Below are positions 1-21,352 of a DNA stretch of 24,000 nt, one piece after another (position 1 is the stretch's first letter; the number at the start of each line of letters is the position of its first letter). The position numbers and the translations under genes are program-made. The notes beneath the pieces are model-generated. The model was not told the origin of the DNA and made no database searches. It saw only the letters and a program-made list of their open reading frames with translations. The DNA comes from Oscillospiraceae bacterium (GTDB lineage Bacteria > Bacillota > Clostridia > Oscillospirales > Oscillospiraceae): the NCBI GenBank assembly GCA_016293865.1, contig JAEDDG010000024.1, forward strand, positions 1,048 through 25,047, in the 5' to 3' direction.

Positions 1-60
1 CTGGGATTTTTTTAAGCGGTGAACGGCCGTCCAATCTCAAAGAAAACGGAGGAAAACAAG

Positions 61-1476
61 ATGAGAAAGATTAACATTGCAGACATTACGCTCAGCGAAT
101 CCGCTGCCGGCAAGGATCTGACTCTCAGCTTCAAGGAAAAGCTGGAGATTGCCAAGCATCTTGATAAAATGCGGGTGGACGTGCTGGAACTGCCGCAGCT
201 GGAGAATTTGAAGACAGATGCGCTTCTGGTGCGGACCATTGCCACCACTGTGCAGAACTGCGCCGTATCCATTCAGGTGGGTATGACTGAAGCAGGCGCT
301 GACAACGCCTGGGCCGCCGTGATGAAGGCGCGCCGGCCGCGGCTGCGTGTGGCCCTGCCGGTGAGCACGGTGCAGATGGAATATCTGTGCCACAAAAAGC
401 CCGCGGCCATGCTGGAACTGATTTCCGTTATGGTGAAAAAATGCGTCTCCCTGTGCGCGGATGTGGATTTTACCGCGGAGGACGCAACACGCGCCGAGCC
501 GGAATTCCTGAAAGCGGCGATTGAAGCGGCGGTGAAGGCCGGCGCGACAACAGTGACTGTCAGTGACACGGCGGGCATTATGATGCCGGAGGAATTTGCA
601 CAGTTCATTTCCGATCTGCGCGCTACAGTTCCTGAGCTGGAAAATGTATCACTGGCGGTCAAGTGCGCCAATGAGCTGAAAATGTCCGTGGCTTGCGCCA
701 TGACTGCCGTCAAAGCCGGCGCCTGCGAGATCAAGGCATGCGCTTCCGGGGATACGCTGCCGACGCTCTCGGCTCTGAGCCGGATTTTCCGCCTGCGGGG
801 CGATTCTGTGGGCGTCTGCTGCAATCTGAATTCCATGGAGATCCAGCGCCTGACCAAGCAGATTGAGTGGATTACCCGGGCGAAAAAGTCGGCCACCACG
901 CCGTTTGACACCGGCATCAGCGCCGGCAGCGGCGCGGAGTTTTCGCTCAGCAGCAATGACAGCCTGGACGAGGTGGCCAAGGCTGTGGCGCAGCTGGGCT
1001 ATGACCTGACCGAGGATGATATTGCCAAGGTTTATGAGTCTTTTTCCCACATTGCGTCCAAGAAAGCGGTTTCCTCAAAGGAGCTTGAGGCAATTGTGGC
1101 CAGCGTTGCGCTGCAGGTTCCGCCCACGTACCGGCTGAAGAGCTTTGTCATCAACAGCGGCAACCTGATTTCCGCCACAGCCAATATTTCCCTTGACAAG
1201 GGCGACCGGATGATGCAGGGCGTCAGCGTCGGCGACGGTCCTATTGACGCGGCGTTCCTTGCCATTGAAAAAATTATCGGAACCCATTATGACCTGGACG
1301 ATTTCCAGATCCAGGCCGTTACCGAGGGGCGCGAGGCCGTGGGCTCCGCTGTTGTCAAGCTGCGGTCGTCAACCGGAAAGCTTTATTCCGGCCGCGGAAT
1401 TTCCACGGATATCATCGGCGCGTCCATCCGCGCGTACATCAACGCCCTGAACAAGATCGTTTATGAGGAGAACTGA
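61..1476 (+). CDS. LeuA/HMGL-like TIM-barrel protein with a LeuA-type C-terminal regulatory domain; catalytic motifs degenerate (probable pseudoenzyme or regulatory subunit)
   Basis: ORF 19..1476. GGAGGA at 45-50 favours ATG 61 (MRKINIADITL...). The N-terminus is collinear with 2-isopropylmalate synthase, but the expected TLRDGEQ reads TLSESAA and the HxH metal-site region reads AVKCANELK. The C-terminal GDGPIDAAFLAIEKI...GRGISTDIIGASIRAYINALNKI resembles the LeuA dimerisation/allosteric domain. Confidence 0.75.
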   Translation: MRKINIADITLSESAAGKDLTLSFKEKLEIAKHLDKMRVDVLELPQLENLKTDALLVRTIATTVQNCAVSIQVGMTEAGADNAWAAVMKARRPRLRVALPVSTVQMEYLCHKKPAAMLELISVMVKKCVSLCADVDFTAEDATRAEPEFLKAAIEAAVKAGATTVTVSDTAGIMMPEEFAQFISDLRATVPELENVSLAVKCANELKMSVACAMTAVKAGACEIKACASGDTLPTLSALSRIFRLRGDSVGVCCNLNSMEIQRLTKQIEWITRAKKSATTPFDTGISAGSGAEFSLSSNDSLDEVAKAVAQLGYDLTEDDIAKVYESFSHIASKKAVSSKELEAIVASVALQVPPTYRLKSFVINSGNLISATANISLDKGDRMMQGVSVGDGPIDAAFLAIEKIIGTHYDLDDFQIQAVTEGREAVGSAVVKLRSSTGKLYSGRGISTDIIGASIRAYINALNKIVYEEN

Positions 1477-1478: not shown

Positions 1479-3995
1479 ATGAAACTTTCATTTTCCATTA
1501 AAGGCTGGAACGGATACAGCTGGGATGAGTTCTGCGCCCTGGCAAAGGATATGGATATTCAGGGCATTGAGCTTTACAATATTCACAATACTGCGTTTAC
1601 AGAGAAGGGCGGCCCCTTTGACGAGCATACGGCGGCGGCCACTCTGCGGGAAATGCATGCGCACAATCTGCAGATCCCGTGCATCGATTCTGTCTGCGAC
1701 ATCGCCGACGCTGCGCAGTATGAACACAACTGCACGGAAATTGACGCCTGTATCAAAACGGCGGCGAGCTTTAAAGTTCCCTATGTCCGCGTACACGCCA
1801 CCGGCGGCGACGATGTGACGGAAACCGTGATGAACTGCCTGCGCAGGGCTGTTGCAGCCGCGGAAGCGGCGGGTGTCACTGTGCTGATTGAAACGGTGGG
1901 GCTCTTTGCCGACACCGGCCGGCTGAGAAATGTCCTGAATGATTTTGCCTGCGACAATCTCGGCGCGCTGTGGGATATGCAGCATCCCTACCGCATCTGC
2001 GGCGAAAAGCCGGACACGACAATCCAGAATCTGGGTGCCTATGTCCGCCATGTGCATGTGAAGGACTCTGAAGTTGTGGACGGCCAGGTGGAATACCGCC
2101 TGATGGGCGAGGGCACGCTGCCTATGCAGGATATGATGAACGCCCTGCGCAGCGTGAACTACAACGGCTTCATTTCCCTGGAATGGGATCCCGCCTGGAT
2201 GCCTGAAATCGACGATATTGAGGTTATCCTGCCGCATTTCGTGAATTACATGAACCGGTTCAGCGATCCCTCCCGGTCGCGCTCCGTTCTGTATGACAAC
2301 CATACGCATACAGGCAAATATGTCTGGAAAAAGGAACTGATCATCGAGAAGACATTCTCTCAGGTACTGGACAGAATGGTGGAGGAATTCCCGGATCAGT
2401 ACGCCTTCAAATATACGACGCTGGATTACACCCGGACCTATGCCGAGTTCAGGGACGATGTGGACGAGTTTGCCCGCACGCTGATCGCGCTGGGCGTCAA
2501 GCCCGGCGACAAGGTGTCCATCTGGGCGACCAACATTCCCCAGTGGTATATCACCTTCTGGGCGACAACGAAGATCGGCGCGATCCTGGTGACTGTCAAT
2601 ACGGCGTACAAGGTGCATGAGGCCGAATATCTGTTCCGTCAGTCCGACACCCATACAATCGTGATGATTGACGGCTACAGGGATTCCAACTACTCTGAAA
2701 TCATCGCGGAGCTGTGCCCGGAGCTGGAGAATACCGTGCCCGGCCAGCCGTTGCATGCAAAGCGCCTGCCGTTCCTGCGCAACGTGATCACCGTCGGGTT
2801 CAGACAGAAGGGCTGCCTGACCTGGGAGGAATCCCTGCTGCTGGCAAACCGCGTGCCCCAGGAAGAGGTGGATCGCAGGGCGGCTGCGGTGGACATTCAC
2901 GACGTGTGCAACATGCAGTATACGTCGGGTACCACGGGCTTCCCCAAGGGTGTTATGCTGACCCATTACAACGTCGTCAACAACGGCAAGGCCATCGGCG
3001 ACTGCATGGATCTGTCCACGGCAGACCGGATGATGATCCAGGTGCCCATGTTCCACTGCTTCGGCATGGTGCTGGCCATGACGGCATCCATGACGCACGG
3101 GGCGACGCTGCATCCGATTCCGTATTTCTCACCGAAATCTTCGCTGGCCTGCATCAACAACGAGCATGTGACGGCCTTCCACGGCGTGCCGACCATGTTT
3201 ATTGCCATGCTCGAGCATGAAGATTTTGAAAAGACTGATTTTTCCTACATGCGTACGGGTATTATGGCCGGTTCCCCCTGTCCCATCAAGGTGATGGAGG
3301 ACGTTGTGGAAAAGATGCACATGCCGGAAATCTGCATTACGTACGGGCAGACGGAGGCATCGCCCGCCACGACCATGAGCAAGACCACAGACTCCATCGA
3401 AACCCGTGTCAATACCGTGGGCAGCCCCATCTTCGGCGTCGAGTGCAAAATTATCAATCCGGAGACAGGCGAGGAAGTGCCGGACAACGTGGACGGCGAG
3501 TTCTGCGCCCGGGGCTACAACATCATGAAGGGATATTACAAGATGCCCATCGCCACGGCGGAAGCCATTGACAAGGACGGCTGGCTCCACTCCGGAGATC
3601 TGCTGCGCCGCCTGCCGGACGGCACGTTCAAGGTTACCGGCCGCCTGAAGGATATGATTATCCGCGGCGGCGAGAACATCTACCCCAAGGAGATCGAGGA
3701 CTTCCTCTACACCCATCCCAAGGTTTCGGACGTTCAGGTCATCGGCGTGCCGGATGAGCAGTACGGCGAGGAAATCATGGCCTGCGTGATTGTGAAGGAA
3801 GGGGAAACGCTGACCGAAAGCGAGCTGCGGGAATATTGCCGCACGCGCATTGCCAAGCATAAGGTCCCGCGCTACTTCGATTTTGTGGATTCCTTCCCCA
3901 TGAATGCGGCCGGAAAGATCCTCAAATACAAAATGCGCGAACAGGCGGTGGACAAGCTGGGCCTGAAGAAGGCGGCGTCGGTTGTGACGGCCTGA
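1479..3995 (+). CDS. Fusion protein: N-terminal xylose-isomerase-like (sugar phosphate isomerase/epimerase, AP-endonuclease-2 type) TIM barrel plus C-terminal AMP-forming acyl-CoA ligase (FadD/ACSF2-like)
   Basis: One 838-aa ORF. Its ATG lies 2 nt after the stop of the upstream gene. Residues about 1-270 carry TIM-barrel metal-ligand-like positions (LIETVG, WDMQHP, HVHVKD, SLEWD). Residues about 300-838 carry adenylate-forming motifs YTSGTTGFPKGVMLTH, YGQTE, GWLHSGD and GRLKDMIIRGGENIYPKEIE. Confidence 0.85.
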   Translation: MKLSFSIKGWNGYSWDEFCALAKDMDIQGIELYNIHNTAFTEKGGPFDEHTAAATLREMHAHNLQIPCIDSVCDIADAAQYEHNCTEIDACIKTAASFKVPYVRVHATGGDDVTETVMNCLRRAVAAAEAAGVTVLIETVGLFADTGRLRNVLNDFACDNLGALWDMQHPYRICGEKPDTTIQNLGAYVRHVHVKDSEVVDGQVEYRLMGEGTLPMQDMMNALRSVNYNGFISLEWDPAWMPEIDDIEVILPHFVNYMNRFSDPSRSRSVLYDNHTHTGKYVWKKELIIEKTFSQVLDRMVEEFPDQYAFKYTTLDYTRTYAEFRDDVDEFARTLIALGVKPGDKVSIWATNIPQWYITFWATTKIGAILVTVNTAYKVHEAEYLFRQSDTHTIVMIDGYRDSNYSEIIAELCPELENTVPGQPLHAKRLPFLRNVITVGFRQKGCLTWEESLLLANRVPQEEVDRRAAAVDIHDVCNMQYTSGTTGFPKGVMLTHYNVVNNGKAIGDCMDLSTADRMMIQVPMFHCFGMVLAMTASMTHGATLHPIPYFSPKSSLACINNEHVTAFHGVPTMFIAMLEHEDFEKTDFSYMRTGIMAGSPCPIKVMEDVVEKMHMPEICITYGQTEASPATTMSKTTDSIETRVNTVGSPIFGVECKIINPETGEEVPDNVDGEFCARGYNIMKGYYKMPIATAEAIDKDGWLHSGDLLRRLPDGTFKVTGRLKDMIIRGGENIYPKEIEDFLYTHPKVSDVQVIGVPDEQYGEEIMACVIVKEGETLTESELREYCRTRIAKHKVPRYFDFVDSFPMNAAGKILKYKMREQAVDKLGLKKAASVVTA

Positions 3996-4066: not shown

Positions 4067-4096
4067 TTGACACGGACGAAAAAATAAGAGTAAAAT
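4067..4096 (+). promoter_or_regulatory. Sigma-A-like promoter of T-box leader 1
   Basis: TTGACA (4067-4072), 18-nt spacer, TAAAAT (4091-4096), about 25 nt upstream of the Stem I K-turn. Confidence 0.6.
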
Positions 4097-4119
4097 GACA
4101 TCAATTGAATCATTGTTAA

Positions 4120-4404
4120 AGGCTGTGACGAAGACGGAAGAGCGATTTCACATCCAGAGAGCCGGGGACGGTGTGAGCCCGGCGGTGCAGATCCTCATAT
4201 TCCCATCCCTTCCGAGCTGTTGGCCCCAAAGTCCGTTCCGGATGAGTAGACGCCTTCCGTGATTGCTGCGTGAATGCATAGGGCTTGACTGAGCCTGAGA
4301 GCGGTGCCGGATAACCGGCGCAATTTGAGTGGTACCGCGGGTTTATCTTGTTTGTAAACTCGTCTCAAGGATTTCCGTATCTTTGAGACGAGTTTTTTGT
4401 TTTT
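4120..4404 (+). promoter_or_regulatory. T-box riboswitch leader 1 (tRNA-sensing transcription attenuator)
   Basis: K-turn GGC-UGU-GA (4121-4128) opposite GA-GCU (4214-4218). AGAGA bulge at 4156-4160. Distal hairpin gccggg/cccggc with loop GACGGUGUGAG (4161-4183). GAGUAG and CCGUGA (F-box-like) at about 4242-4262. T-box sequence AAUUUGAGUGGUACCGCGG at 4322-4340. UUGAG (4325-4329) can pair with CUCAA (4364-4368) in the 5' arm of the terminator, giving an antiterminator alternative. Confidence 0.85.
4357..4404 (+). terminator. Intrinsic terminator of T-box leader 1
   Basis: actcgtctcaa (4358-4368) pairs with ttgagacgagt (4383-4393), followed by TTTTTGTTTTT. It sits immediately before RBS AAGGAGG (4405-4411). 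Confidence 0.85.
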
Positions 4405-4417
4405 AAGGAGGTAAAAG

Positions 4418-6685
4418 ATGATGAGCAGCTACGTTGACAACAGCATCCTTGAGGTGGCGCACCGCATTCGTGAAATGCGCGAGATCGCGGGCTTTTCCGT
4501 GGAAGAGATGGCCGCCCAGACCAATGTGACGGCTGATATGTACCGGACGCTGGAGGCAGGCGGGACGGACCTTCCGTTCACATTTATCCACAAGTGCGCG
4601 CTGGCCTTCGGCATTGAGATTACCGACCTGATTGAAGGCAAAAGCGCCAAGCTTACCAGCTATACAGTGACCCGCAAAGGTGAGGGACGTGTGACAGCCC
4701 AGGAGGACGGGATTGAAATCCTTGACCTTGCGCCGCAGTTCCGCAAAAAAATTGCAGAGCCGTACTGGGTCCGCTATGAGTATTCTGAAGAGCTGCAGAC
4801 AAAGCCCATTCATCTGACCACACACTCCGGCCAGGAGTTTGACTATATCATCAAGGGCCGCCTGAAGGTTCAGGTCGGCAATCACATCGAAGTTCTCAAT
4901 GAGGGCGATTCGATTTACTACAACAGCTCCACGCCGCACGGCATGATTGCCGTCAACGGTGAGCCCTGCGTATTCTGCGCGGTTGTTCTGCCGGGCGAGG
5001 ATGCGGCGGAGAGCGAGCACAAAAACAGCATCATCCATCCCCGGACGGCGGAGCCCATGATCTGCGACAAGTTTGTGCGCTGCACAGAGGATGAGGAAGG
5101 CCATCTGCAGAAGATCGAGTTTACGAATGAGGATCAGTTCAACTTCGGCTTCGACGTGGTGGATGCGCTGGCGGATAAGTATCCCGATAAGCTTGCCATG
5201 CTGCACATTGCAGAGGATATGACCGAGCGCCGCTTCAGCTTTGCGGACATGAAGCGCGCCAGCGCCCAGACGGCCAACTATTTCACTTCACTGGGCATCA
5301 AAAAGGGCGACCGGGTCATGCTGGTGCTCAAGCGGCACTATCAGTTCTGGTTCTCCATGCTGGCGCTGCATAAGATGGGCGCCATCCCGATCCCGGCCAC
5401 AAACCAGCTTCTGGAGCACGATTTTGAGTACCGTTTCGATGCGGCCGGCATCTCGGCAATCGTCTGCACGGCTGACGGAGACGCTGCGCACCAGGCGGAG
5501 CTGGCCATGGAAAAATGCCCGCAGGTGACTGTCCGCGTGCTCGTAGGCGGGAAGCGGGAAGGCTGGCACGATTTTGACAGCGAGTACAAGCTTTTCTCCG
5601 GCTCTTATCCGCGTACGGAAGAGACGCCCTGCGGCGACGACATCATGTTCATGCTCTTTACTTCCGGCACCACAGGGTACCCGAAAATTGCGGAGCACAG
5701 CTACAAGTATCCGCTCGGCCACTATGTGACCGCCAAGTACTGGCACTGTGTGGAGCGGGGCGGCCTGCACCTGACCATTTCCGATACCGGCTGGGGCAAG
5801 GCGCTGTGGGGCAAGCTTTACGGCCAGTGGCTGGCAGAAGGCGCCGTATTCGTCTATGACTTTGACCGGTTCGATGCCCATAAGATTCTGCCCATGTTTG
5901 CAAAATACAACATTACAACCTTCTGTGCGCCGCCCACCATGCTGCGCATGATGGTCAAGGAGGATCTGTCACAGTACGATCTGAGCTCCGTCACCCATAT
6001 GACGACGGCAGGCGAGGCGCTGAATCCCGAGGTCTTCCGCCAGTTCGAGGCGGCCACCGGCCTGCAGATCATGGAAGGTTTCGGCCAGACGGAGACGACG
6101 CTCCTGATCGGCAACCTGATCGGCGATACACCCAAGCTGGGATCCATGGGCAAGCCCTCGCCCCAGTATGACGTGGTGATTGTGGACGCACAGGGCAAGG
6201 AAGTCCCGGTCGGTGAAAACGGCGAAATCTGCGTGCGTACAGACAAGGGCGTGCCCTGCGGCCTGTTCAAGGGCTATTACAACGCGCCGGATAAAACGGC
6301 CGAGGTCTGGCACGACGGCCTGTACCACACCGGCGACGTGGCCTGGAAGGATGAGGACGGCTATCTGTGGTACGTCAGCCGCATCGACGACGTGATCAAA
6401 TCCTCCGGCTACCGCATCGGGCCGTTTGAGATTGAGAGCGTGATCATGGAGCTTCCGTATGTTCTGGAGTGCGGCGTTTCTGCGGCTCCGGATCCGGTGC
6501 GCGGCCAGGTGGTCAAGGCGTCCATCGTTCTGACTAAGGGAACCGAGGGGACCGAGGAGCTGAAAAAAGAGATCCAGGATTATGTGAAAAAGCATACCGC
6601 ACCGTACAAATATCCGCGTATTGTGGTCTTCCGTGACAGTCTGCCCAAGTCCATCAGCGGCAAGATCCAGCGCAACAAGCTGTAA
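4418..6685 (+). CDS. XRE-family HTH + cupin + medium-chain acyl-CoA synthetase (MACS/ACSM-like, AMP-forming) fusion, paralog 1
   Basis: 755-aa ORF with AAGGAGG 6 nt upstream. HTH at about aa 10-70 (FSVEEMAAQTNVTADMYRTLEAG). Cupin at about aa 130-190 (HSGQEFDYIIKG...STPHGMIAV). Ligase motifs FTSGTTGYPK, GFGQTET, YHTGDVA, RIDDVIKSSGYRIGPFEIES, SGKIQRNKL. Confidence 0.9.
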   Translation: MMSSYVDNSILEVAHRIREMREIAGFSVEEMAAQTNVTADMYRTLEAGGTDLPFTFIHKCALAFGIEITDLIEGKSAKLTSYTVTRKGEGRVTAQEDGIEILDLAPQFRKKIAEPYWVRYEYSEELQTKPIHLTTHSGQEFDYIIKGRLKVQVGNHIEVLNEGDSIYYNSSTPHGMIAVNGEPCVFCAVVLPGEDAAESEHKNSIIHPRTAEPMICDKFVRCTEDEEGHLQKIEFTNEDQFNFGFDVVDALADKYPDKLAMLHIAEDMTERRFSFADMKRASAQTANYFTSLGIKKGDRVMLVLKRHYQFWFSMLALHKMGAIPIPATNQLLEHDFEYRFDAAGISAIVCTADGDAAHQAELAMEKCPQVTVRVLVGGKREGWHDFDSEYKLFSGSYPRTEETPCGDDIMFMLFTSGTTGYPKIAEHSYKYPLGHYVTAKYWHCVERGGLHLTISDTGWGKALWGKLYGQWLAEGAVFVYDFDRFDAHKILPMFAKYNITTFCAPPTMLRMMVKEDLSQYDLSSVTHMTTAGEALNPEVFRQFEAATGLQIMEGFGQTETTLLIGNLIGDTPKLGSMGKPSPQYDVVIVDAQGKEVPVGENGEICVRTDKGVPCGLFKGYYNAPDKTAEVWHDGLYHTGDVAWKDEDGYLWYVSRIDDVIKSSGYRIGPFEIESVIMELPYVLECGVSAAPDPVRGQVVKASIVLTKGTEGTEELKKEIQDYVKKHTAPYKYPRIVVFRDSLPKSISGKIQRNKL

Positions 6686-6787: not shown

Positions 6788-6803
6788 TTACTCAATTCAG
6801 AAA

Positions 6804-7089
6804 AGCTTTGACGGAGAGTGCCCTGGCAGGCCGTGTTTCAGAGAATTGGCGTCTGGTGCGAGCCAATAATACGCAGCCAGCGGTTTGTAGCTCCCGAGCT
6901 GGAAGGAAGAAAGCGCGTGCGTGAGTAGAACCTTCCCGTGACTGCTGCGTAAAGGCATAGGGCTTGACAGAGTCTGAGAGTGGCGCTGGTTTCCGGCGCA
7001 ATTTGAGTGGTACCGCGGGTCTTTATATGAACGTATAAAACTCGTCTCAAAGATTACAACATCTTTGGGGCGGGTTTTTGTTTTACCGC
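6804..7089 (+). promoter_or_regulatory. T-box riboswitch leader 2 (tRNA-sensing transcription attenuator)
   Basis: K-turn AGC-UUU-GA (6804-6811) opposite GA-GCU (6896-6900). AGAGA at 6840-6844. Distal hairpin attggc/gccaat with loop GUCUGGUGCGA. GAGUAG and CCGUGA elements at about 6922-6941. A 28-nt block ccggcgcaatttgagtggtaccgcgggt (6993-7020) is identical to 4315-4342. Terminator ctcgtctcaaagat / atctttggggcggg (7041-7074, several G-U pairs) followed by TTTTTGTTTT. Confidence 0.85.
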
Positions 7090-9387: not shown

Positions 9388-10071
9388 ATGCTTACAAAAC
9401 GCATTTCCCTGTTTGCCGGCCATTACGGCAGCGGAAAGACGAATATCGCCGTGAACTGCGCGCTGTGCGCCAGGGAAGCGGGGCAGAACGTGACCATTGC
9501 CGACCTGGATATTGTCAACCCGTATTTCCGGACAAAGGACAGCGAGGCGCTTTTGAAGCGTCATGGGATCGGCCTTGTCTGCTCCGAATATGCCAATACA
9601 AATCTGGATATCCCGGCACTGCCCAAGGAACTGTATGCCATATTGGCACGCAGGGATTCAGCGGTTATAATGGATATCGGCGGCGATGACCGCGGCGCCG
9701 TGGCGCTGGGCCGCTATACGCCGATGATTCTGGAAGAAAACGATTACGACATGTTTTTTGTGGCCAATTTTTACCGGCCGCTGACCCGTACGCCGGAAGA
9801 AATGATCCAGATCATGCGTGAGATTGAAACGGCTTCCGGCCTGCCGTTTACGGCAATCATCAACAACTCGAACCTTGCCGGCGACACACAGGCAGACACA
9901 GTGACAGACACTGTGGGGAAGGCGCGGGAACTGTCCCGGATAACGGGGCTGCCCATACGCGCCACCTGTGTGGAGCAGAGGCTTTTCGAAAGCCTGAAGG
10001 ATCAGATACCGGATCTTGTTCCGCTGCATCTTCAGGAAAAATATTTTGACATTGTAAATGGAGGGATCTAA
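9388..10071 (+). CDS. P-loop NTPase (SIMIBI/MinD-ParA-CooC-like), function unknown
   Basis: Walker A AGHYGSGKTN near the N-terminus and a Walker-B-like VIMDIGGDD. RBS AAGGAGA overlaps the stop of the upstream ligase gene. Its stop lies 1 nt before the ferredoxin-subunit start. Confidence 0.75.
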   Translation: MLTKRISLFAGHYGSGKTNIAVNCALCAREAGQNVTIADLDIVNPYFRTKDSEALLKRHGIGLVCSEYANTNLDIPALPKELYAILARRDSAVIMDIGGDDRGAVALGRYTPMILEENDYDMFFVANFYRPLTRTPEEMIQIMREIETASGLPFTAIINNSNLAGDTQADTVTDTVGKARELSRITGLPIRATCVEQRLFESLKDQIPDLVPLHLQEKYFDIVNGGI

Positions 10072-10072
10072 A

Positions 10073-10279
10073 ATGGCGAAGCTGACATTTAAAACCGACC
10101 TGTGCAAGGGATGCGGACTGTGCGTCAACGCATGTCCGAAGGGCGTGCTTGAAATTGCGCGCGACAAAATCAACCTCAAGGGGTATTCTCCCGTGGTTGC
10201 CAGGGATATGGATAAATGCATCGGTTGTGCATTCTGCGCAACCATGTGTCCCGACTGCATTATTACAGTAGAAAAGTGA
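10073..10279 (+). CDS. 2-oxoacid:ferredoxin oxidoreductase delta subunit (2x[4Fe-4S] ferredoxin)
   Basis: Two CxxCxxCxxxCP motifs (CKGCGLCVNACP, CIGCAFCATMCP). ATG 10073 (MAKLTFK...) is preceded by GGAGGG. The ORF-track start 10058 overlaps the previous gene. Confidence 0.85.
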   Translation: MAKLTFKTDLCKGCGLCVNACPKGVLEIARDKINLKGYSPVVARDMDKCIGCAFCATMCPDCIITVEK

Positions 10280-10289
10280 GGTGCCGATT

Positions 10290-11351
10290 ATGGCAGAAAA
10301 AGTATTGATGAAGGGCAATGAAGCCATTGCCGAGGCAGCCATCCGCGCCGGCTGCCGTCACTATTTCGGATATCCCATCACGCCGCAGACAGAAATCGCG
10401 GCATATATGGCCAAGAAAATGCCGAAAATCGGCGGAACATTTCTCCAGGCGGAAAGTGAAATTGCCGCCATTAATATGGTCTACGGCGTATCCTCTGCCG
10501 GCTTCCGGGTCATGACCTCGTCATCCAGCCCCGGTGTCAGCCTGAAGAGCGAGGGCCTGTCCTATCTGGCGGGCTGCGACCTGCCGGCGCTTGTGGTCAA
10601 TGTCCAGCGCGGCGGCCCCGGCCTCGGCGGCATTCAGCCCTCCCAGTCCGATTATTTTATGGCCACCAAGGGCGGCGGACACGGCGATTTCCGCATGATC
10701 GTTCTGGCGCCTGCTTCTGTTCAGGAAATGGCCGGCCTGACCTTCAAGGCTTTTGAACTGGCCGATCAGTACAGAATGACCGCCATGCTGCTGGCTGACG
10801 GAACTCTGGGTCAGATGATGGAGGCCATCACGTTCCCGGAGACTGAGGTCAGGACATTTGACAAGCCCTGGGCCGTCACCGGCACGCAGATGAAGCGCCC
10901 CCACAACATCATCAATTCTCTGGCGCTCGTACCGGATGTGCTGGAAAAGATGAATTTTGACCGGTATAAGAAATACGCGGAAATCGAGGAAAAGGAGCCC
11001 ATGTACGAATCGTACATGATGGATGACGCGGAAATCTGTGTCGTCGCCTTCGGTATTGCCTCCCGCGTGTCCAAGAATGCAATTATGGCCGCAAGGGCTG
11101 AGGGCATCAAGGTGGGCATGATCCGGCCCATCACGCTCTGGCCGTTCCCCACAAAGGCGCTGGCAGAAGCGGCGCAGAAGTGCAGGGCGTTTGTCTCTGT
11201 TGAACTCAACATGGGCCAGATGATTGAAGATGTCCGGCTGGCTACCGGCTGCGCGCGGCCTGTTTCCCTGTGCAACAGAGCCGGCGGTATGATCCCCACG
11301 CCGGATCATGTCCTTGCATCCATTCGGGAAGCCAACAAGGGAGGTAACTGA
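10290..11351 (+). CDS. 2-oxoacid:ferredoxin oxidoreductase alpha subunit (KorA/VorB-type)
   Basis: MAEKVLMKGNEAIAEAAIRAGCRHYFGYPITPQTEI is the typical OFOR alpha N-terminus. GAGGTG sits 6 nt upstream of ATG 10290. Confidence 0.9.
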   Translation: MAEKVLMKGNEAIAEAAIRAGCRHYFGYPITPQTEIAAYMAKKMPKIGGTFLQAESEIAAINMVYGVSSAGFRVMTSSSSPGVSLKSEGLSYLAGCDLPALVVNVQRGGPGLGGIQPSQSDYFMATKGGGHGDFRMIVLAPASVQEMAGLTFKAFELADQYRMTAMLLADGTLGQMMEAITFPETEVRTFDKPWAVTGTQMKRPHNIINSLALVPDVLEKMNFDRYKKYAEIEEKEPMYESYMMDDAEICVVAFGIASRVSKNAIMAARAEGIKVGMIRPITLWPFPTKALAEAAQKCRAFVSVELNMGQMIEDVRLATGCARPVSLCNRAGGMIPTPDHVLASIREANKGGN

Positions 11352-11353: not shown

Positions 11354-12112
11354 ATGGTCGTTTTTGAGAAACCTCATGCCCTCACCGATGCACCGCTGCA
11401 TTACTGCCCCGGCTGCACGCACGGCATTGTTCACCGCCTTGTGGCGGAAGCCATCGACGCCCTCGGAATTGAGGGGAAGACCATCGGCGTGGCGCCGGTC
11501 GGCTGCTCCGTCATGGCCTATAATTATTTTTCATGCGATATGATTGAAGCGGCGCACGGCCGCGCACCGGCTGTGGCAACCGGCGTAAAGCGGGCGCTGC
11601 CGGACAACATTGTCTTTACATATCAGGGCGACGGCGATCTGGCGTCCATCGGCACGGCGGAGACCGTTCACGCTGCAGCGAGAAACGAGAACATTACGAT
11701 TATCTTCATCAACAACGCCATTTACGGCATGACCGGCGGCCAGATGGCGCCCACGTCGCTGCCCGGCCAGGTGACGCAGACTTCGCCGTACGGCCGCGAT
11801 CCGCAGCTGTGCGGTTTCCCGGTTAAAATCTGCGAAATGCTTTCTCAGCTGGAAGGTCCGGAGTATATTGAGCGCGTGGCGGTCAACAACGTCAAGAACA
11901 TCAAAAAAGCCGGCAAAGCCATTCTGAAAGCTTTTAAGAACCAGACGGAGAACAAGGGCTTCTCGCTGATTGAAGTTGTCTCCACCTGTCCCACCAACTG
12001 GGGTATGACGCCGCAGGACGCGATGAAGTGGGTGGATGAAAAAATGATTCCCTATTACCCGCTGGGCGTTTACAAAGACAGAAGCGCGGAAAAAGCAGAG
12101 GAGGGGAAATAA
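11354..12112 (+). CDS. 2-oxoacid:ferredoxin oxidoreductase beta subunit (TPP-binding)
   Basis: CPGCTHG cysteine motif and TPP motif YQGDGDLASIG...NNAIYGMTGGQ. Tightly packed against the alpha and gamma genes. Confidence 0.9.
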   Translation: MVVFEKPHALTDAPLHYCPGCTHGIVHRLVAEAIDALGIEGKTIGVAPVGCSVMAYNYFSCDMIEAAHGRAPAVATGVKRALPDNIVFTYQGDGDLASIGTAETVHAAARNENITIIFINNAIYGMTGGQMAPTSLPGQVTQTSPYGRDPQLCGFPVKICEMLSQLEGPEYIERVAVNNVKNIKKAGKAILKAFKNQTENKGFSLIEVVSTCPTNWGMTPQDAMKWVDEKMIPYYPLGVYKDRSAEKAEEGK

Positions 12113-12645
12113 TGGCCACTTCACAGATTCTGATTGCGGGTTTCGGCGGACAGGGCGTCCTTTTCGCCGGGAAGTTTTTGGCCTACAAGGCCCTGACTGA
12201 GAATAAGCAGCTGAGCTGGCTGCCGTCCTACGGCCCGGAAATGCGCGGCGGCACGGCCAACTGCAGCGTGATTATCAGCGACGATCCGGTTGGTTCTCCC
12301 ATCATTACCACGCCGGACTGCCTGATTGCCATGAACCGGCCGTCTCTTGACAAATATGTGGACGCAGTGGCGCCCGGCGGCATGATCCTTGTGGATTCGT
12401 CCCTGATCAGCGTCGAGGTCGAACGCACGGATGTCCGCACCTTCTATATTCCGGCAACCAAAATGGCAAATGACGCGGGCTTCGCGACGCTTGCGAACAT
12501 GGTTCTTGTGGGCAAACTGATCAAGGAATCCGGCGTTGTTTCTTTTGAAAATAACAAAGAGACTTTTGAAAAGTTCATTCCGGCAAAGAAAGCAAATCTG
12601 ATTGAGATCAACTGCCAGGCCCTGCAGACCGGGTATGATTATTAA
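12112..12645 (+). CDS. 2-oxoacid:ferredoxin oxidoreductase gamma subunit
   Basis: N-terminal [16 protein letters not shown] and [19 protein letters not shown] are typical of OFOR gamma subunits. TAATG overlap with the beta subunit gene. Confidence 0.9.
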
Positions 12646-12663: not shown

Positions 12664-13737
12664 ATGCTTGACATTAAGATCACCAAAACCACACAGCCCA
12701 AGCAAAAGCCCGCGCCGGGTCAGAAACTCGGCTTCGGCCATATTTTCACCGACCATATGTTCATCATGAACTATACGGAAGGAAAAGGCTGGCATGATCC
12801 GCGGATCGTTCCGTTCCAGAATCTGAGCCTGTCTCCCGCGGCGATGGTTTTTCACTACGGTCAGGAAATGTTCGAAGGCCTGAAGGCCTATAAGAATTCC
12901 GACGGCGAAGTTTTCCTTTTCCGCCCGGATATGAACGCCAAGCGCACCAATTCTTCCAATGAGCGTCTGTGTATCCCGCAGCTGCCGGAAGAGGATTTTG
13001 TCCAGGCTGTCAGAACGGTTGTGGATGTGGACCGCGACTGGGTCCCGACGGATCCCGGCACGTCCCTGTATATCCGTCCGTTCATCATCGCAACGGATGA
13101 GTTCCTGGGTGTTGCGCCGTCCAAGACGTATCTGTTCATGGTCATTCTGTCACCCAGCGGCGCTTATTATGAAAGCGGACTGGAGCCTGTGGGCATCTGG
13201 ATTGAGGATGAGTATGTCCGTGCGGTCCGCGGCGGCATGGGCTTTGCCAAAACCGGCGGCAACTATGCGGCCAGCCTGATCGGCCAGGTGAAGGCGCACA
13301 ACGACGGTTATTCCCAGGTTCTGTGGCTGGACGGTGTGGAGCGCAAGTACGTTGAGGAAGTCGGCTCCATGAATATTTTCTTCAAAATTGCCGGCAAAGT
13401 GGTTACGCCCATGCTCAACGGCAGCATCCTGCCGGGCATTACCCGCAACTCTGTCATTACCCTGTGCAAAGAGTGGGGCTATGAGGTTGAGGAACGGAAG
13501 GTTTCTGCTGAAGAGCTGATTCAGGCGCATGCAGACGGCACGCTGGAAGAGGTTTTCGGCACCGGTACTGCAGCCGTCATTTCTCCTGTCGGCAAGCTGC
13601 GCTATAAGGACGATGTGATGACGATCCAGGACGGCAGGACCGGCGAACTGAGCCACCGTCTCTATGATACCATTACCGGCATTCAGCTGGGCAAGCTGCC
13701 GGACACGCACGGCTGGCGTGTAAAAGTCGGCGAATAA
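12664..13737 (+). CDS. ilvE: Branched-chain amino acid aminotransferase (class IV, long form)
   Basis: 357 aa. Motifs FGHIFTDHMF, YGQEMFEGLKAY, RAVRGGMGFAKTGGNYAASL and ILPGITR match long-form IlvE (YbgE/YwaA type). RBS AAGGAAAGGA upstream. Confidence 0.9.
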   Translation: MLDIKITKTTQPKQKPAPGQKLGFGHIFTDHMFIMNYTEGKGWHDPRIVPFQNLSLSPAAMVFHYGQEMFEGLKAYKNSDGEVFLFRPDMNAKRTNSSNERLCIPQLPEEDFVQAVRTVVDVDRDWVPTDPGTSLYIRPFIIATDEFLGVAPSKTYLFMVILSPSGAYYESGLEPVGIWIEDEYVRAVRGGMGFAKTGGNYAASLIGQVKAHNDGYSQVLWLDGVERKYVEEVGSMNIFFKIAGKVVTPMLNGSILPGITRNSVITLCKEWGYEVEERKVSAEELIQAHADGTLEEVFGTGTAAVISPVGKLRYKDDVMTIQDGRTGELSHRLYDTITGIQLGKLPDTHGWRVKVGE

Positions 13738-13829: not shown

Positions 13830-14765
13830 GTGCACCCTTTGGTTTATAATAATGTGCTGGAGGCGGTCGGACAGACGCCCGTCATTCGGCTGATGCGCAT
13901 GAGCAATCCCAATCATGCCCAGGTTCTTGTCAAATATGAAGGGCTGAACGTGGGCGGTTCGATCAAAACGCGGACTGCGCTGAATATGATCAACGCGGCC
14001 GAGCGTGCCGGGATTATCCGTCCGGATACGATTATTGTGGAGCCGACCAGCGGAAACCAGGGCATCGGTCTGGCACTGGTCGGTGCTGTCCGCGGCTATA
14101 AAACTGTGATTATCATGCCCGATTCGGTCAGTGTGGAGCGGCGCAAACTGATTGAGCATTACGGCGCGCAGCTTGTGCTGATCCGGGACGAGGGCAACAT
14201 CGGCGACTGCATTGAAAAGTGTATTCAGACGGCAAATGACATGGCGAAAGCGGACAGCCGCGTTTATATTCCACAGCAGTTTTCCAATCCGAACAATCCA
14301 CTGGTGCATAAGCATTTCACGGCGCTGGAGATTCTCCAGCAGGTTGCAGGGCCCATTCACGGCTTCTGCTCCGGAATCGGTACGGGCGGCACAATTTCCG
14401 GCATCGGCGAGACGCTGAAAAGCGTTTATCCGGATATGACCATCTGGGCTGTTGAGCCGGAGAACGCGGCGATTCTGGCCGGAGGAACGGTCGGCTCCCA
14501 TCTTCAGATGGGAATCGGAGACGGCCTGATTCCGGAAAATCTGAACACGAAGATTTACGACGATATCTACATTGTCAGTGATGATGAGGCCATCGGAACA
14601 GCCAAGGATCTGGCGCGGTACGAGGGTCTGATGTGCGGCATTTCCAGCGGCACAAATGTGGCCGCGGCGCTGAAGCTTGCGGAGAAGCTGGGGAAGGGAA
14701 AAACAGTTGTGACCATTCTGCCGGACACGGCGGAGCGCTATTTTTCCACGCCGCTGTTTGACTGA
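13830..14765 (+). CDS. cysK: Cysteine synthase A / O-acetylserine sulfhydrylase (PLP-dependent)
   Basis: GQTPVIRL, GGSIKTR (PLP lysine), TSGNQGIGLA and GIGTGGTISG motifs. The start is uncertain: GTG 13830 overlaps the GAGAGG RBS, so TTG 13839 (spacing about 7 nt) is at least as likely. Confidence 0.85.
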   Translation: MHPLVYNNVLEAVGQTPVIRLMRMSNPNHAQVLVKYEGLNVGGSIKTRTALNMINAAERAGIIRPDTIIVEPTSGNQGIGLALVGAVRGYKTVIIMPDSVSVERRKLIEHYGAQLVLIRDEGNIGDCIEKCIQTANDMAKADSRVYIPQQFSNPNNPLVHKHFTALEILQQVAGPIHGFCSGIGTGGTISGIGETLKSVYPDMTIWAVEPENAAILAGGTVGSHLQMGIGDGLIPENLNTKIYDDIYIVSDDEAIGTAKDLARYEGLMCGISSGTNVAAALKLAEKLGKGKTVVTILPDTAERYFSTPLFD

Positions 14766-14933: not shown

Positions 14934-14981
14934 CCATAAGCAGTTTAACCGACAGATACAAAAGATATGGAGGTTTTTTTC

Positions 14982-15251
14982 ATGCGTGCAATCGTCACTG
15001 TCGCCGGGCATGACCGGGTGGGAATTATCGCTGAGGTGTGCTCGCTGCTTGCCTCTCTGAATGTCAATATTCTGGATATCAACCAAACGGTCATGCAGGA
15101 GTTTTTCACGATGACCATGCTGGTGGATACAAGCGCCGCATCCGGAAGCTTTGAACGGATCAAAAAGGCGCTGGCCGACAAAGGCGAGGCGATGGCGCTT
15201 TCCATCCGCATCCAGCAGGAAGACATTTTTAACGCCATGTACAGAATATGA
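14982..15251 (+). CDS. ACT domain protein (UPF0237 family)
   Basis: MRAIVTVAGHDRVGIIAEVCSLLASLNVNILDINQTVMQEFFTM is an ACT fold signature. GGAGG sits 8 nt before ATG 14982 (ORF-track start 14967 rejected). Confidence 0.85.
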   Translation: MRAIVTVAGHDRVGIIAEVCSLLASLNVNILDINQTVMQEFFTMTMLVDTSAASGSFERIKKALADKGEAMALSIRIQQEDIFNAMYRI

Positions 15252-15261: not shown

Positions 15262-16620
15262 ATGATCAGCCATTCTGATATTATCCGCACGCTGGAAATG
15301 ATTGATCACCAGCATCTGGATATCCGCACCATTACCATGGGCATATCACTGCGCGACTGTGCGGATCCTGACGTGCGCCGCTGTGCGGAAAAAATTTATG
15401 ATAAAATCACCCGCTGCGCCGACAAACTGGTGGAGACCGGGTGCCAGATTGAAAATGAACTGGGCATTCCGATTGTCCATAAGCGCATTTCCGTTACGCC
15501 TGCGGCATTGGTTGCCGAGGCCTGTCAGACGGAGGACTACGTGCCCATTGCCCGGGCAATGGACGATGCAGCCAAGGCCTGCGGCGTCAATTTTATCGGC
15601 GGATTCTCTGCGCTTGTCCACAAAGGCTGTACAGTGGGAGACCGGCGCCTGATCGGGTCTATTCCAGAGGCGCTTGCCGTTACGGAGCGGGTTTGCTCCA
15701 GCGTCAATGTGGCCACGACCCGCGCGGGAATCAATATGGACGCTGTGGCGCAGATGGGCCGCGTGATTAAGCGCACGGCGGAGCTGACGGCGGAAAGCGG
15801 CGGCCTCGGCTGTGCCAAACTGGTGGTTTTTTCCAACGCGGTGGAGGATAACCCGTTTATGGCCGGCGCATTTCACGGCGTGGGAGAGCCGGAGTGCGTG
15901 ATCAATGTGGGAGTATCCGGCCCGGGCGTTGTGTATCATGCGCTGAAAGGCGTACGCGGCGCTTCCTTTGATGTCGTAGCCGAAACGGTTAAAAAGACGG
16001 CCTTCCAGATTACGCGGATGGGTGAGCTTGTGGCGCAGGAGGCGTCCCGGCGGCTGGGTGTTCCCTTTGGCGTAGTGGATCTGTCCCTGGCACCGACGCC
16101 GGCAAAGGGGGACAGCGTGGCCCGCATTCTGGAGGAAATGGGGCTGGAAACCTGCGGGACGCATGGAACCACCGCTGCGCTGGCGCTGCTGAACGATGCG
16201 GTCAAAAAAGGCGGCGTGATGGCGTCCAGCCACGTGGGCGGCCTTTCCGGCGCATTTATCCCCGTCAGCGAGGACGAGGGAATGATAGAAGCCGCTGCCG
16301 GCGGAACGCTCTGTCTGGATAAGCTGGAGGCCATGACCTGCGTGTGCTCTGTGGGTCTTGACATGATTGCCGTTCCCGGCGATACGCCGGCGGAAACCAT
16401 TTCCGCCATCATCGCGGACGAAGCGGCAATCGGAATGGTGAACAACAAGACCACGGCAGTGCGTGTGATTCCCGTGCCGGGGAAAACCGTGGGGGACAAC
16501 GTGGAGTTCGGCGGACTTCTGGGCAGTGCGCCCGTTATGCCGCTGCATCCGGAGAGCAGCGCGGCCTTTATCGCCCGCGGCGGACGTATTCCGGCGCCGC
16601 TGCACAGCCTGCGCAACTGA
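15262..16620 (+). CDS. UPF0210 (DUF711, PFL-like) family protein
   Basis: 452 aa. [16 protein letters not shown] near the N-terminus and the typical pairing with the upstream UPF0237 ACT protein. Confidence 0.8.
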
Positions 16621-16705: not shown

Positions 16706-16743
16706 AAAGAGAGGATGAAACCAGATTTCATCCTCTCTTTTTG
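16706..16743. terminator. Bidirectional intrinsic terminator between convergent genes
   Basis: aaagagaggatgaaa (16706-16720), loop ccag, atttcatcctctcttt (16725-16740), followed by TT. A-rich 5' flank and T-rich 3' flank. Confidence 0.8.
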
Positions 16744-17476: not shown

Positions 17477-18133
17477 TTATCGATGTATCAAAAATTTATT
17501 TTTTGTAAATGAAATGATTCCACTTTGTTGCATTTTGGAAAGCTCGGCGCACATGGCGCTGCGGTCAACTGCGAGGAAGTCCGCCAGCTGCTGCCGGTTG
17601 AATGGAATCTCAAAGCTGTCGCTTCCGGCCAGATGCGCCTGCTCGGACAGATAGGACATCAGCTTTTCACGTGTGGTGCGGCAGGACATGTGCATCAGCT
17701 TCCGGTTCAGCTGCAGCGACTGTGTAGAAATGCTGAGCAGGAGATTTTCAATCATTTTGGAGTGACGCTGGCAGGATTTTGTGCAGGGAGCTGAGATTTT
17801 GTCAATGGGGATCAGCATGACCGTGCAGCGCTCAACAGCAATTATGCTGACATCCAGCGGCAGGGAAGAGGCCGCATAAACCTCGGCAAACAGACTTCCT
17901 GCGGGCTTGACAGCGAGAATATTCCGCCGTCCCCAGATGTCCTCGCGGATTATATGCGCGCTGCCTTCCAGTAAAAGCCCGATGCTGTCCGTGCTGTCTC
18001 CGTTGCACAGGATATAGGCGCCGCGCTCGAACCGGCGGATTGCCGGGGAAAGGCATTTCAGAAGGTTTTTGATCTCATCCTGGCCGATTCCGGAAAACAG
18101 CACATTTTTTTCAAGAACATTTAAGGTGTCCAT
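17477..18133 (-). CDS. Crp/Fnr family transcriptional regulator
   Basis: N-terminal cNMP-binding-like domain (LFSGIGQDEIKNLL...) and C-terminal HTH (REKLMSYLSEQ...IPFNRQQLADFLAVDRSAMCAELSKMQQSGII). Confidence 0.85.
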   Translation of the reverse strand: MDTLNVLEKNVLFSGIGQDEIKNLLKCLSPAIRRFERGAYILCNGDSTDSIGLLLEGSAHIIREDIWGRRNILAVKPAGSLFAEVYAASSLPLDVSIIAVERCTVMLIPIDKISAPCTKSCQRHSKMIENLLLSISTQSLQLNRKLMHMSCRTTREKLMSYLSEQAHLAGSDSFEIPFNRQQLADFLAVDRSAMCAELSKMQQSGIISFTKNKFLIHR

Positions 18134-18209
18134 CCGTTTTTCTCCCTGTGGTTTGTTTTTCTGCTGTTTATGCGGCGCCGGACTGCGGGGACACAGCCGT
18201 CCGCAGCGG

Positions 18210-18241
18210 GAAAAAGCCTCCGGCCTTGATGCCGGAGGCTT
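18210..18241 (-). terminator. Intrinsic terminator after the ior-UPF0340 operon
   Basis: agcctccggc / gccggaggct (18215-18224 and 18231-18240). On the minus strand it is followed by a U-run (plus-strand AAAAA at 18211-18215). Confidence 0.8.
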
Positions 18242-18247
18242 TCAGCT

Positions 18248-18793
18248 TCAGTAAAGACGCTCGTCGTAAACGGCACGGCATCCGCCGACAAATTTCGGAC
18301 GCACCCGTGCGGCCAGCAGAATGGCGCTGCCGATGTGGTCCAGCTTCAGGCGGACAGGCACGGCAACTTTTTTCAGGTGCATGCCGATCAGCGTCCCACC
18401 GATGTCCAGACCGGCATCCGCCCGGATCTCCTCGACTGCGACGGGATCTGAAAAACCGTGATAGGCGGCGGTGGCAAAAGAGCCGCCAGCCTTCGGCTGA
18501 GGAACAACGTTGACAATGTCAGCGCCGGGCACCGCAGCGCGCTCAATGATGATGGAGCGGTTCAGATGCTCGCAGCACTGCGCAGCCAGCCAGATTCCAC
18601 GCTCCTGCAGCACGCCGTAAATGCCGGAGAAGACAGCCTGGGCAACCTCGGGAACGGAATTTTTGCCGATATGGAACCCGAGAATTTCACTGGTGGAACA
18701 GCCGACGACCATAATGCTGCCCTTTGAAAGATGCGCCGTTTCGCACAGCTCACGCGCAGCGTCTGCTGCGAGCTGCTTGTAATTGATATCCAT
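18248..18793 (-). CDS. UPF0340 / TIGR01440 (YwlG-like, DUF436) family protein
   Basis: 181 aa. GSIMVVGCSTSEILG, CCEHLNRSIIIER and DAGLDIGGTLIGMHLK resemble B. subtilis YwlG-type proteins. Lies 32 nt downstream of iorB on the same strand. Confidence 0.75.
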   Translation of the reverse strand: MDINYKQLAADAARELCETAHLSKGSIMVVGCSTSEILGFHIGKNSVPEVAQAVFSGIYGVLQERGIWLAAQCCEHLNRSIIIERAAVPGADIVNVVPQPKAGGSFATAAYHGFSDPVAVEEIRADAGLDIGGTLIGMHLKKVAVPVRLKLDHIGSAILLAARVRPKFVGGCRAVYDERLY

Positions 18794-18825
18794 ACAGAAT
18801 CACCTTCCGGAAAATTGGTACCGAA

Positions 18826-19398: not shown

Positions 19399-19399
19399 G

Positions 19400-21181: not shown

Positions 21182-21239
21182 AGTTCTGTCCTCCAATATA
21201 GATTTTCCTGCTCTCTTTGAGACAAAATTACATCAAAAT

Positions 21240-21267
21240 ATTATAATCCTTTTTTACGCGGCAGTAA
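21240..21267 (-). promoter_or_regulatory. Sigma-A-like promoter of the ior operon
   Basis: Minus strand reads TTACTG (plus 21262-21267), 16-nt spacer, TATAAT (plus 21240-21245). Confidence 0.5.
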
Positions 21268-21317
21268 AGGATTCTTTTTAATTTCTCAGCATGCCGCCGC
21301 CGGAAAATACAGGGCAC

Positions 21318-21352
21318 GCAAAAAGCGGCAGGGATTCAGACTCTCCCTGCCG
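21318..21352 (-). terminator. Intrinsic terminator after the flavodoxin-family gene
   Basis: cggcaggga (21326-21334) pairs with tccctgccg (21344-21352). On the minus strand it is followed by CUUUUUG. Confidence 0.75.

Follow-up and report, generated by a model that had tools for sequence, protein, structure and literature searches.

What does it mean for a gene encoding an acyl-coenzyme A (CoA) ligase to stand behind a T-box riboswitch, a leader expected to respond to an uncharged transfer RNA (tRNA), and for which amino acid would such a ligase work? The question is raised by a stretch of 24,000 nucleotides (nt) from an Oscillospiraceae bacterium (assembly GCA_016293865.1, contig JAEDDG010000024.1, positions 1,048-25,047, forward strand), which was analysed as a whole and is called the window below. 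It carries a T-box leader (leader 1) before the gene HCL1, whose product joins helix-turn-helix (HTH), cupin and adenosine monophosphate (AMP)-forming acyl-CoA ligase domains, and a second T-box (leader 2) before its paralogue HCL2. To place both genes, we used a comparison set of 80 loci from species-representative genomes encoding relatives of HCL1 (top identity 74%), all of them from Clostridia metagenome-assembled genomes (MAGs) of gut, rumen or digester and assigned to Oscillospiraceae, Acutalibacteraceae, Christensenellaceae and one Peptococcaceae. The results showed that leader 1 is a genuine T-box with an isoleucine (Ile) specifier and that leader 2 carries a valine (Val) specifier, and together with the gene content they make it probable that the locus is a starvation-induced salvage system in which branched short-chain fatty acids are turned into branched-chain amino acids and every amino acid has its own ligase, controlled by the T-box of the same specificity. 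The original prediction for this DNA, made from leader 1 and its gene, contained neither the Ile specifier, nor the Val T-box with its paralogous ligase, nor the leucine (Leu)-class T-box of related genomes.

The covariance model RF00230 matched the plus strand of the window at 4116-4370 over its full length (1-219 of 219) with 56.7 bits, corresponding to an E-value of 7.4e-12 when a 441-nt region was searched and of 4e-10 window-wide. The individual elements could also be read directly from the letters (Table 1), so that the T-box hallmarks claimed for this region by the original prediction proved accurate in coordinates and description, and the Pfam domains HTH_3/HTH_19, Cupin_2, AMP-binding and AMP-binding_C bear out its account of the gene that starts with the ATG at 4418. 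The 3' strand of the antiterminator (4359-4367) lies within the 5' arm of the terminator (4356-4372), which makes the two folds mutually exclusive, and the hexamers of the promoter-like site P1 are also kept in a 92%-identical relative (L081). The gathering score of RF00230 is 93 bits, an operational noise filter and not a structural feature, and a default Rfam scan of the 24-kb window at gathering thresholds returned no match. The original prediction had treated a score below threshold as speaking against a T-box, and 56.7 bits is formally such a score; this yardstick is too strict here, since orthologous leaders pass the threshold and their covariation is strong.

A T-box core, counted if it lay no more than 420 nt upstream of the ligase gene, was found for 77 of 81 HCL1 orthologues and for all 65 HCL2 orthologues. 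The four exceptions before HCL1 comprise one core with a single-base variant, one contig edge and two truly leaderless genes, which brings the corrected count to about 78 of 80 evaluable orthologues. Scores above 93 bits were reached in the Ile class by L046 (104.7) and in the Val class by L003 (97.2) and L012 (95.2). When the 62 Ile-class Stem I sequences were folded jointly with RNAalifold, 20 pairs were obtained, 16 of which show compensatory double changes, and the Stem I motifs GC/UGA...GAGC, AGAGA and GGUG are invariant or nearly so across the aligned leaders. In an alignment of 56 leader 3' halves, Stem III and the antiterminator were 95.5% paired in comparison to 37% to 48% in slid registers, and Stem III and the terminator were paired in 92% of cells in comparison to 37% to 47%; compensatory changes occur in 8 of the 17 terminator pairs, and the observed values for Stem III plus terminator were reached by none of 500 shuffles. 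The T-box sequence CAAUUUGAGUGGUACCGCG, present in the window at 4321-4339 and 6999-7017, is invariant in all 56 sequences. Because nearly all orthologues have the leader, some of these pass 93 bits and the stems covary, leader 1 is not a chance match, and it is confirmed as a genuine T-box despite its sub-threshold score. In the two leaderless loci (L001:7670-8000, Peptococcaceae UBA7702; L002:7670-8000, an anaerobic-digester Clostridiales MAG) an unrelated open reading frame (ORF) ends 36 nt before the HCL1 orthologue, and the Val T-box (GUC) before HCL2 is kept.

The amino acid to which each leader belongs was read from the specifier codon, taken as the 3 nt ending 1 nt before the closing CUUC stem, which is the same position rule as in TBDB (PMC7778990). 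All 62 Ile-class leaders have AUC as their specifier, and its flanks vary (CCCAUCA, CCUAUCA, CCCAUCC, UUUAUCC and others). The Val class, to which leader 2 belongs (RF00230 match at 6799-7052, 87.2 bits, E-value 5.6e-18), was represented by 59 aligned leaders with GUA in 53, GUC in 5 and CUG in 1, and the synonymous alternation between GUA and GUC argues that amino-acid identity is the selected feature. In the UGGN bulge the variable base is U, which would pair with an A73 discriminator, and tRNA-Ile, tRNA-Val and tRNA-Leu all carry A73; tRNA genes, sought in the window for their anticodon and discriminator base, were not present there. Leaders 1 and 2 have identical T-box sequences, similar F-box regions and terminators, and paralogous genes behind them, which is consistent with tandem duplication of leader and gene followed by the change between AUC and GUA. 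The single CUG, a Leu codon, stands in the T-box before the HCL2 orthologue of L076 (10365-10468), where the other 58 leaders have GUA or GUC, and may represent a switch in specificity.

Leucine is represented by a further class of T-boxes, which precede LeuA-like genes in related genomes, score 113 to 122 bits and carry the specifier CUC (L003:2687-2925, L046:2659-2898, L031:2656-2882, L010:10020-10267 and L018:10164-10396). Two of these carriers, L003 and L046, share the gene order of the window, and the position corresponding to their Leu leader would be upstream of base 1, beyond the 5' edge of the window.

Table 1. Positions of leader elements and genes in the window, with the basis of each assignment
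Feature	Position	Strand	Basis
LeuA-like gene	19-1476	+	domain match; below LeuA equivalog cut-offs
Xylose-isomerase-like TIM barrel + FadD-type acyl-CoA ligase fusion	1479-3995	+	domains
Promoter-like site P1, TTGACA-18-TAAAAT	4067-4096	+	11/12 consensus matches; putative function
T-box leader 1, Ile-specific	4116-4405	+	RF00230 match, terminator, covariation
Leader 1 Stem I with K-turn base	4122-4217	+	read from sequence
Leader 1 AGAGA bulge	4156-4160	+	read from sequence
Leader 1 specifier AUC (Ile codon)	4205-4207	+	read from sequence
Leader 1 T-box sequence AAUUUGAGUGGUACCGCG	4322-4339	+	read from sequence
Leader 1 antiterminator	4326-4367	+	alignment pairing
Leader 1 UGGU bulge	4330-4333	+	read from sequence
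Leader 1 terminator, 17 base pairs (bp), then T-run	4356-4395	+	read from sequence
Ribosome-binding site AAGGAGG of HCL1	4405-4411	+	read from sequence
HCL1, 755 amino acids: HTH (XRE-type) + cupin + AMP-forming acyl-CoA ligase	4418-6685	+	Pfam
T-box leader 2, Val-specific	6799-7086	+	RF00230 match + terminator
Leader 2 Stem I	6805-6899	+	alignment
Leader 2 specifier GUA	6887-6889	+	alignment
Leader 2 T-box sequence	7000-7017	+	identical to that of leader 1
Leader 2 terminator, then T-run	7037-7078	+	terminator search
HCL2, paralogous HTH-cupin-ligase, 755 amino acids	7111-9378	+	68% identical to HCL1
P-loop ORF (MinD/ParA/Mrp-like), 227 amino acids	9388-10071	+	Walker A GHYGSGKT; weak CbiA/ParA matches
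Small 2x[4Fe-4S] ferredoxin, delta-subunit-like	10058-10279	+	PorD/KorD/OorD-type matches, all below cut-offs
2-oxoacid:ferredoxin oxidoreductase alpha, VOR type	10281-11351	+	POR_N/PFOR_II; VorB NF005507
2-oxoacid:ferredoxin oxidoreductase beta	11354-12112	+	TPP_enzyme_C
2-oxoacid:ferredoxin oxidoreductase gamma	12112-12645	+	POR
Branched-chain aminotransferase IlvE	12664-13737	+	passes NF009897 (503.8 vs 307) and TIGR01123 (412.5 vs 250)
CysK	13830-14765	+	passes TIGR01139; 92 nt after IlvE
ACT-domain protein	14967-15251		
DUF711 protein	15262-16620		
Strong terminator	16706-16740		
Crp-like regulator	17477-18133	-	
DUF436 protein	18248-18793	-	
IorB-like protein	18826-19398	-	
IorA-like protein	19400-21196	-	
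Flavodoxin	21370-21816	-	

The public names of close relatives of the ligases are generic ('cupin domain-containing protein', 'AMP-binding protein', 'acetyl-CoA synthetase') and all belong to MAG proteins. The closest solved structure to the HCL1 ligase domain is PDB 3ETC, that of MacsMa (residues 227-753 aligned to 41-571, E-value 3e-184, 617.7 bits), and the TAKYW segment, which holds Trp259 of MacsMa, is conserved in HCL1. MacsMa, the medium-chain acyl-CoA synthetase of Methanosarcina acetivorans, has 2-methylbutyrate as its preferred substrate and uses an alternate acyl pocket in which Trp259 is critical (PMC10455477). For both paralogues the closest NCBIfam family is MbcS (NF047394), the methylbutyryl-CoA synthetase known from S. 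aureus, with 421.1 bits for HCL1 and 426.3 bits for HCL2. MbcS acts selectively on 2-methylbutyrate and isobutyrate, and its activity on isovalerate, butyrate and acetate is poor (PMC10026030). The two favoured acids correspond to the carbon skeletons of Ile and Val after decarboxylation, and so match the amino acids of the two T-boxes. Judged from these relationships, HCL1 is most likely a 2-methylbutyrate-CoA ligase, HCL2 is proposed to be an isobutyrate-CoA ligase, and both are proposed to work like MbcS.

To see where the paralogues differ, 77 HCL1 and 57 HCL2 orthologues were compared, with 318 columns conserved and identical between the two groups and 13 conserved but different. The N-terminal HTH-cupin module accounts for twelve of these 13 fixed differences (residues 10, 20, 58, 59, 72, 77, 96, 99, 101, 111, 132 and 169). 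The ligase domain has only one, residue 460 (window 5795-5797), which directly follows the DTGW motif (ADSGW-G-K in 3ETC); every Ile-class sequence has Gly there and every Val-class sequence Ala (100% each). The difference fits a predicted pocket larger by one methyl group for the C5 acid, as the two-ligase model predicts.

The genes that follow the ligases point in the same direction. The alpha subunit of the 2-oxoacid:ferredoxin oxidoreductase passes the NCBIfam model NF005507 for VorB of 2-ketoisovalerate:ferredoxin oxidoreductase (538.3 bits, cut-off 399), with beta, gamma and ferredoxin genes adjacent, and the order T-box, HCL1, T-box, HCL2, P-loop ORF, ferredoxin, VOR-type oxidoreductase (VOR) and IlvE was observed across dozens of species-level genomes. 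Across loci, the median gap is 8 nt from the last ligase gene to the P-loop ORF, 2 and -7 nt between successive oxidoreductase genes and 10.5 nt to IlvE; the ferredoxin ORF fills the approximately 218 nt that separate the P-loop ORF from the alpha gene. Such small median gaps are an operon signature behind the proximal T-box, and the genes would be transcribed together. In four genomes lacking HCL2, the Ile T-box and HCL1 stand directly before the P-loop, VOR and IlvE set. The claim of the original prediction that the ligase feeds amino-acid supply is supported both by the VorB-type oxidoreductase and IlvE downstream on the same strand and by the preference of the closest characterised relatives for 2-methylbutyrate and isobutyrate; its treatment of the ligase as something outside amino-acid biosynthesis did not hold up, and HCL1 is better seen as a biosynthetic gene of the salvage kind.

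Under the mechanism that we propose, leader 1 would be a transcription-attenuating T-box specific for tRNA-Ile, and by default transcription starting from P1 would stop at its terminator. When Ile is scarce, the anticodon of uncharged tRNA-Ile would pair with AUC and its 3' NCCA with UGGU, the antiterminator would be stabilised, and HCL1 would be transcribed and would convert 2-methylbutyrate to 2-methylbutyryl-CoA. When Val is scarce, uncharged tRNA-Val would open leader 2 for HCL2, which would turn isobutyrate into its CoA ester, and for the P-loop, ferredoxin, VOR and IlvE genes. VOR, together with reduced ferredoxin, would then form 2-keto-3-methylvalerate or 2-ketoisovalerate by reductive carboxylation of the branched acyl-CoAs, and transamination of these 2-keto acids by IlvE would give Ile or Val. 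A third unit, assigned to Leu and built on a different type of ligase, lies upstream in related genomes. Both starting acids are abundant fermentation products of gut and rumen. Induction by amino-acid starvation fits synthesis and not catabolism, and AMP-forming ligases would drive the activation step. For Leu, it is established that ruminococci carboxylate isovalerate and then aminate the product to leucine (PMC7356843, citing Allison et al. 1962).

Several observations weigh against this reading or against parts of it. The VOR and IlvE genes sit behind the Val T-box, and Ile limitation alone would not obviously raise them; leaky termination, read-through from P1, co-limitation or other gene copies in the genome are possible sources of these enzymes on the Ile side. 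The MbcS scores of HCL1 and HCL2 are far under the equivalog cut-off of 850, for which reason neither was classed as MbcS. The putative placement of residue 460 in the acyl pocket assumes that it occupies the position of the acetate-pocket residue Val310 of S. enterica Acs, and a short-segment PDB search around this residue returned no Acs chain among its matches. The remaining points concern the RNA: both window leaders score below the gathering score, Stem II of leader 1 (4218-4262) sets GUUGG, in place of the GAAGG or GGAGG of other genomes, opposite CCUUC and so contains two U.U mismatches, and the Ile-class specifier loop is compact (2x5 nt) and lacks the usual AGUA/GAA S-turn. The 92%-identical L081 leader (1000-1361) has the same Stem II configuration, which makes the mismatches a lineage feature and not a sequencing error. 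The compact loop, with AC on its 5' side and N-AUC-N on its 3' side (window 4134-4138 and 4202-4208), is common to all 62 Ile-class leaders, and the adjoining helix covaries strongly (one pair is UA in 28, AU in 14 and CG in 14). The low score of leader 1 is attributed to this loop together with the two mismatches, and the loop is probably the reason why most copies miss the Rfam cut-off and may have led automated annotation to overlook Ile-class leaders.

The same loop and mismatches, together with the 56.7 bits and the loss of the T-box before HCL1 in L001 and L002, could be taken to mean that leader 1 in the window is a decaying or non-functional relic, with the ligase constitutive or controlled by its own HTH domain. 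We regard this as highly improbable, because the T-box sequence, the antiterminator and the 17-bp terminator are intact and the compact loop occurs throughout the Ile class, including the leader at 104.7 bits. In addition, L081 keeps every element, retains AUC although a neighbouring base differs, and has a compensatory change from G-C to A-U in Stem III; sharing Stem II as well, it shows a leader that is maintained and not decaying.

Other readings accept the T-boxes and assign the ligases a different product. Branched acyl-CoA primers (2-methylbutyryl-CoA and isobutyryl-CoA) for branched membrane fatty acids might be supplied by the two enzymes, sparing Ile and Val, as by MbcS in S. aureus. 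Primers in Firmicutes normally derive from these amino acids, so that induction under Ile or Val shortage would be plausible, and MbcS, the best-scoring named family for both ligases, has as its documented role the making of branched fatty-acid primers from exogenous 2-methylbutyrate and isobutyrate (PMC10026030). However, the ligases are tightly packed with VOR and IlvE in dozens of genomes, and primer supply from free acids requires neither enzyme, while their catabolic use during starvation for the same amino acid would be counter-productive; the domain annotation also found no fab or FabH gene among the genes of the window. We therefore consider it unlikely that primers are the main product; the two functions are compatible, and primer supply is plausible as an additional one. 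Anaerobes are known to make Ile by carboxylating propionate to 2-oxobutyrate, and the Ile-gated ligase might activate propionate or another small acid, the propionyl-CoA being reductively carboxylated to 2-oxobutyrate, which would enter the ordinary ilv pathway. MacsMa does adenylate C3-C8 acids, but its full reaction is best with 2-methylbutyrate (PMC10455477), and MbcS is poor on small straight-chain acids (PMC10026030). Moreover, Gly460 in the Ile class and the larger Ala in the Val class are the wrong way round for the smaller propionate, and the position of IlvE directly after VOR suits a pathway that yields the final keto acids without further steps, all of which makes this route quite improbable in our view.

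Beyond the salvage pathway itself, the N-terminal module (residues 1-230, window 4418-5110) raises the question of a second level of control. Its only PDB sequence match is 1Y9Q, a stand-alone HTH-cupin regulator (E-value 0.0025), and it may carry ligand or DNA specificity that differs between the paralogues. The concentration of fixed paralogue differences in this module hints at a reading in which the ligases are doubly gated 'trigger enzymes', controlled by the T-box and also by an HTH-cupin module that would sense the end product or keto acid (Ile or 2-keto-3-methylvalerate in the one, Val or 2-ketoisovalerate in the other) and would inhibit the ligase or bind DNA. A pathway with three branches, leading from isoacids to Leu, Ile and Val and controlled in each branch at the RNA and protein level, might then stand in for the canonical ilv route, or circumvent it, in many Oscillospirales of gut and rumen. 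We put this forward tentatively and hold it to be doubtful; if true, genome-based auxotrophy calls for many of these organisms would be wrong. A DNA-binding role of the HTH domain was also sought through operator palindromes near the promoters and was dropped, one weak 72% inverted repeat being found and none before leader 2.

In comparison to known systems, the RNA is a transcriptional T-box of the ordinary kind, whose specifier loop is somewhat reduced. Like class I T-boxes (RF00230; B. subtilis ilv-leu, ileS and valS), the leaders have a Stem I with K-turn, specifier loop, AGAGA bulge and distal loop, a Stem II, a IIA/B-F-box region, a Stem III and the invariant T-box sequence with its UGGN bulge, together with mutually exclusive antiterminator and intrinsic terminator and a specifier read 1 nt before the loop end. 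What distinguishes them is the cargo, which consists of acyl-CoA ligases and the VOR-IlvE set and not of aminoacyl-tRNA synthetases, ilv/leu enzymes or transporters, and, in the Ile class, the 2x5-nt loop without S-turn. Most copies lie just under the gathering score. HCL1 and HCL2 share the AMP-forming ligase domain with MacsMa and MbcS, and the TAKYW segment with MacsMa, and differ from them in the added N-terminal XRE-HTH and cupin module of about 230 residues and in forming an Ile/Val pair of paralogues that is under T-box control and linked to VOR and IlvE.

The chemistry of the pathway is old. Allison and Bryant reportedly described in the 1960s how rumen bacteria make branched-chain amino acids out of branched volatile fatty acids, and the reductive carboxylation route is listed in MetaCyc as an alternative isoleucine pathway. 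The rumen route and the one proposed here have the same steps, from acid to acyl-CoA, to 2-oxoacid by a ferredoxin-dependent oxidoreductase and to amino acid by a transaminase, and the same kind of organisms, gut and rumen Clostridia; the earlier work was physiological and isotopic, whereas the present proposal names particular genes and the way in which they would be regulated. A reconstruction of gut amino-acid biosynthesis from 2,856 genomes did not include the branched-acid carboxylation route (PMC9026213).

Our literature search, with Vitreschak et al. 2008 and the RegPrecise/TBDB tables outside its coverage, found no acyl-CoA ligase and no VOR-IlvE operon described as being under a T-box. 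The growth of T-box regulons through duplication and a change of specifier is reportedly a subject of Vitreschak 2008. It is also covered by other comparative surveys, among them Wels 2008 (PMC2494555), and the present case differs in that the single fixed catalytic-domain difference of the duplicated ligase (Gly/Ala460) tracks the specifier and in that one genome, L076, has CUG at the Val position. Acyl-CoA, CoA and ferredoxin are unmentioned in the Wels 2008 survey and in the TBDB paper (PMC7778990), and a 2020 T-box review leaves acyl unmentioned. The statement in the original prediction that this regulon membership had not been described thus agrees with what was found within that coverage, and the membership, with one ligase per amino acid, appears to be undescribed.

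It has been known since the 1960s that cellulolytic Clostridia of rumen and gut need or use isobutyrate, 2-methylbutyrate and isovalerate for Val, Ile and Leu, and isoacids are fed to dairy cattle because of this conversion. To our knowledge, the genes of the activation step and the regulation of the isoacid route are absent from standard reconstructions. The T-box specifiers serve here as a natural label, which ties one of the two ligase paralogues to Ile and the other to Val, adds a third type of ligase for Leu in related genomes, and also places VOR and IlvE in the same proposed starvation-induced unit, giving assignments of gene function that can be tested. These would be gene-level handles on a nutritional trait of fibre-degrading gut bacteria that is long known and genetically unassigned, and auxotrophy for Ile, Val and Leu may be predicted too readily in Oscillospiraceae, Acutalibacteraceae and Christensenellaceae. 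The T-box regulon is also extended to CoA ligases, and the two units would be an example of joint duplication of leader and gene, followed by specifier change and a change of a single putative pocket residue.

Among the other genes on the plus strand, the LeuA-like gene ends 3 nt before the start of the gene for the TIM-barrel-ligase fusion (1476 to 1479), whose product may activate isovalerate. The P-loop ORF was found in nearly all loci with 51% to 61% identity, always between the last ligase gene and the ferredoxin and oxidoreductase genes, and its product might be a maturation or accessory ATPase of the oxidoreductase; PDB and NCBIfam searches with it gave no significant match. Behind CysK, the genes of the ACT-domain and DUF711 proteins form a pair that ends at a strong terminator. 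An RF00230 scan of the remainder of the window, including the surroundings of the IorA-like and IorB-like genes, gave no T-box at an E-value of 0.01 or less. These two genes, for subunits of indolepyruvate:ferredoxin oxidoreductase, belong to a minus-strand stretch (17477-21816) together with those of a Crp-like regulator, a DUF436 protein and a flavodoxin, and the stretch may be a parallel system that makes aromatic amino acids from arylacetates, or may supply low-potential electrons.

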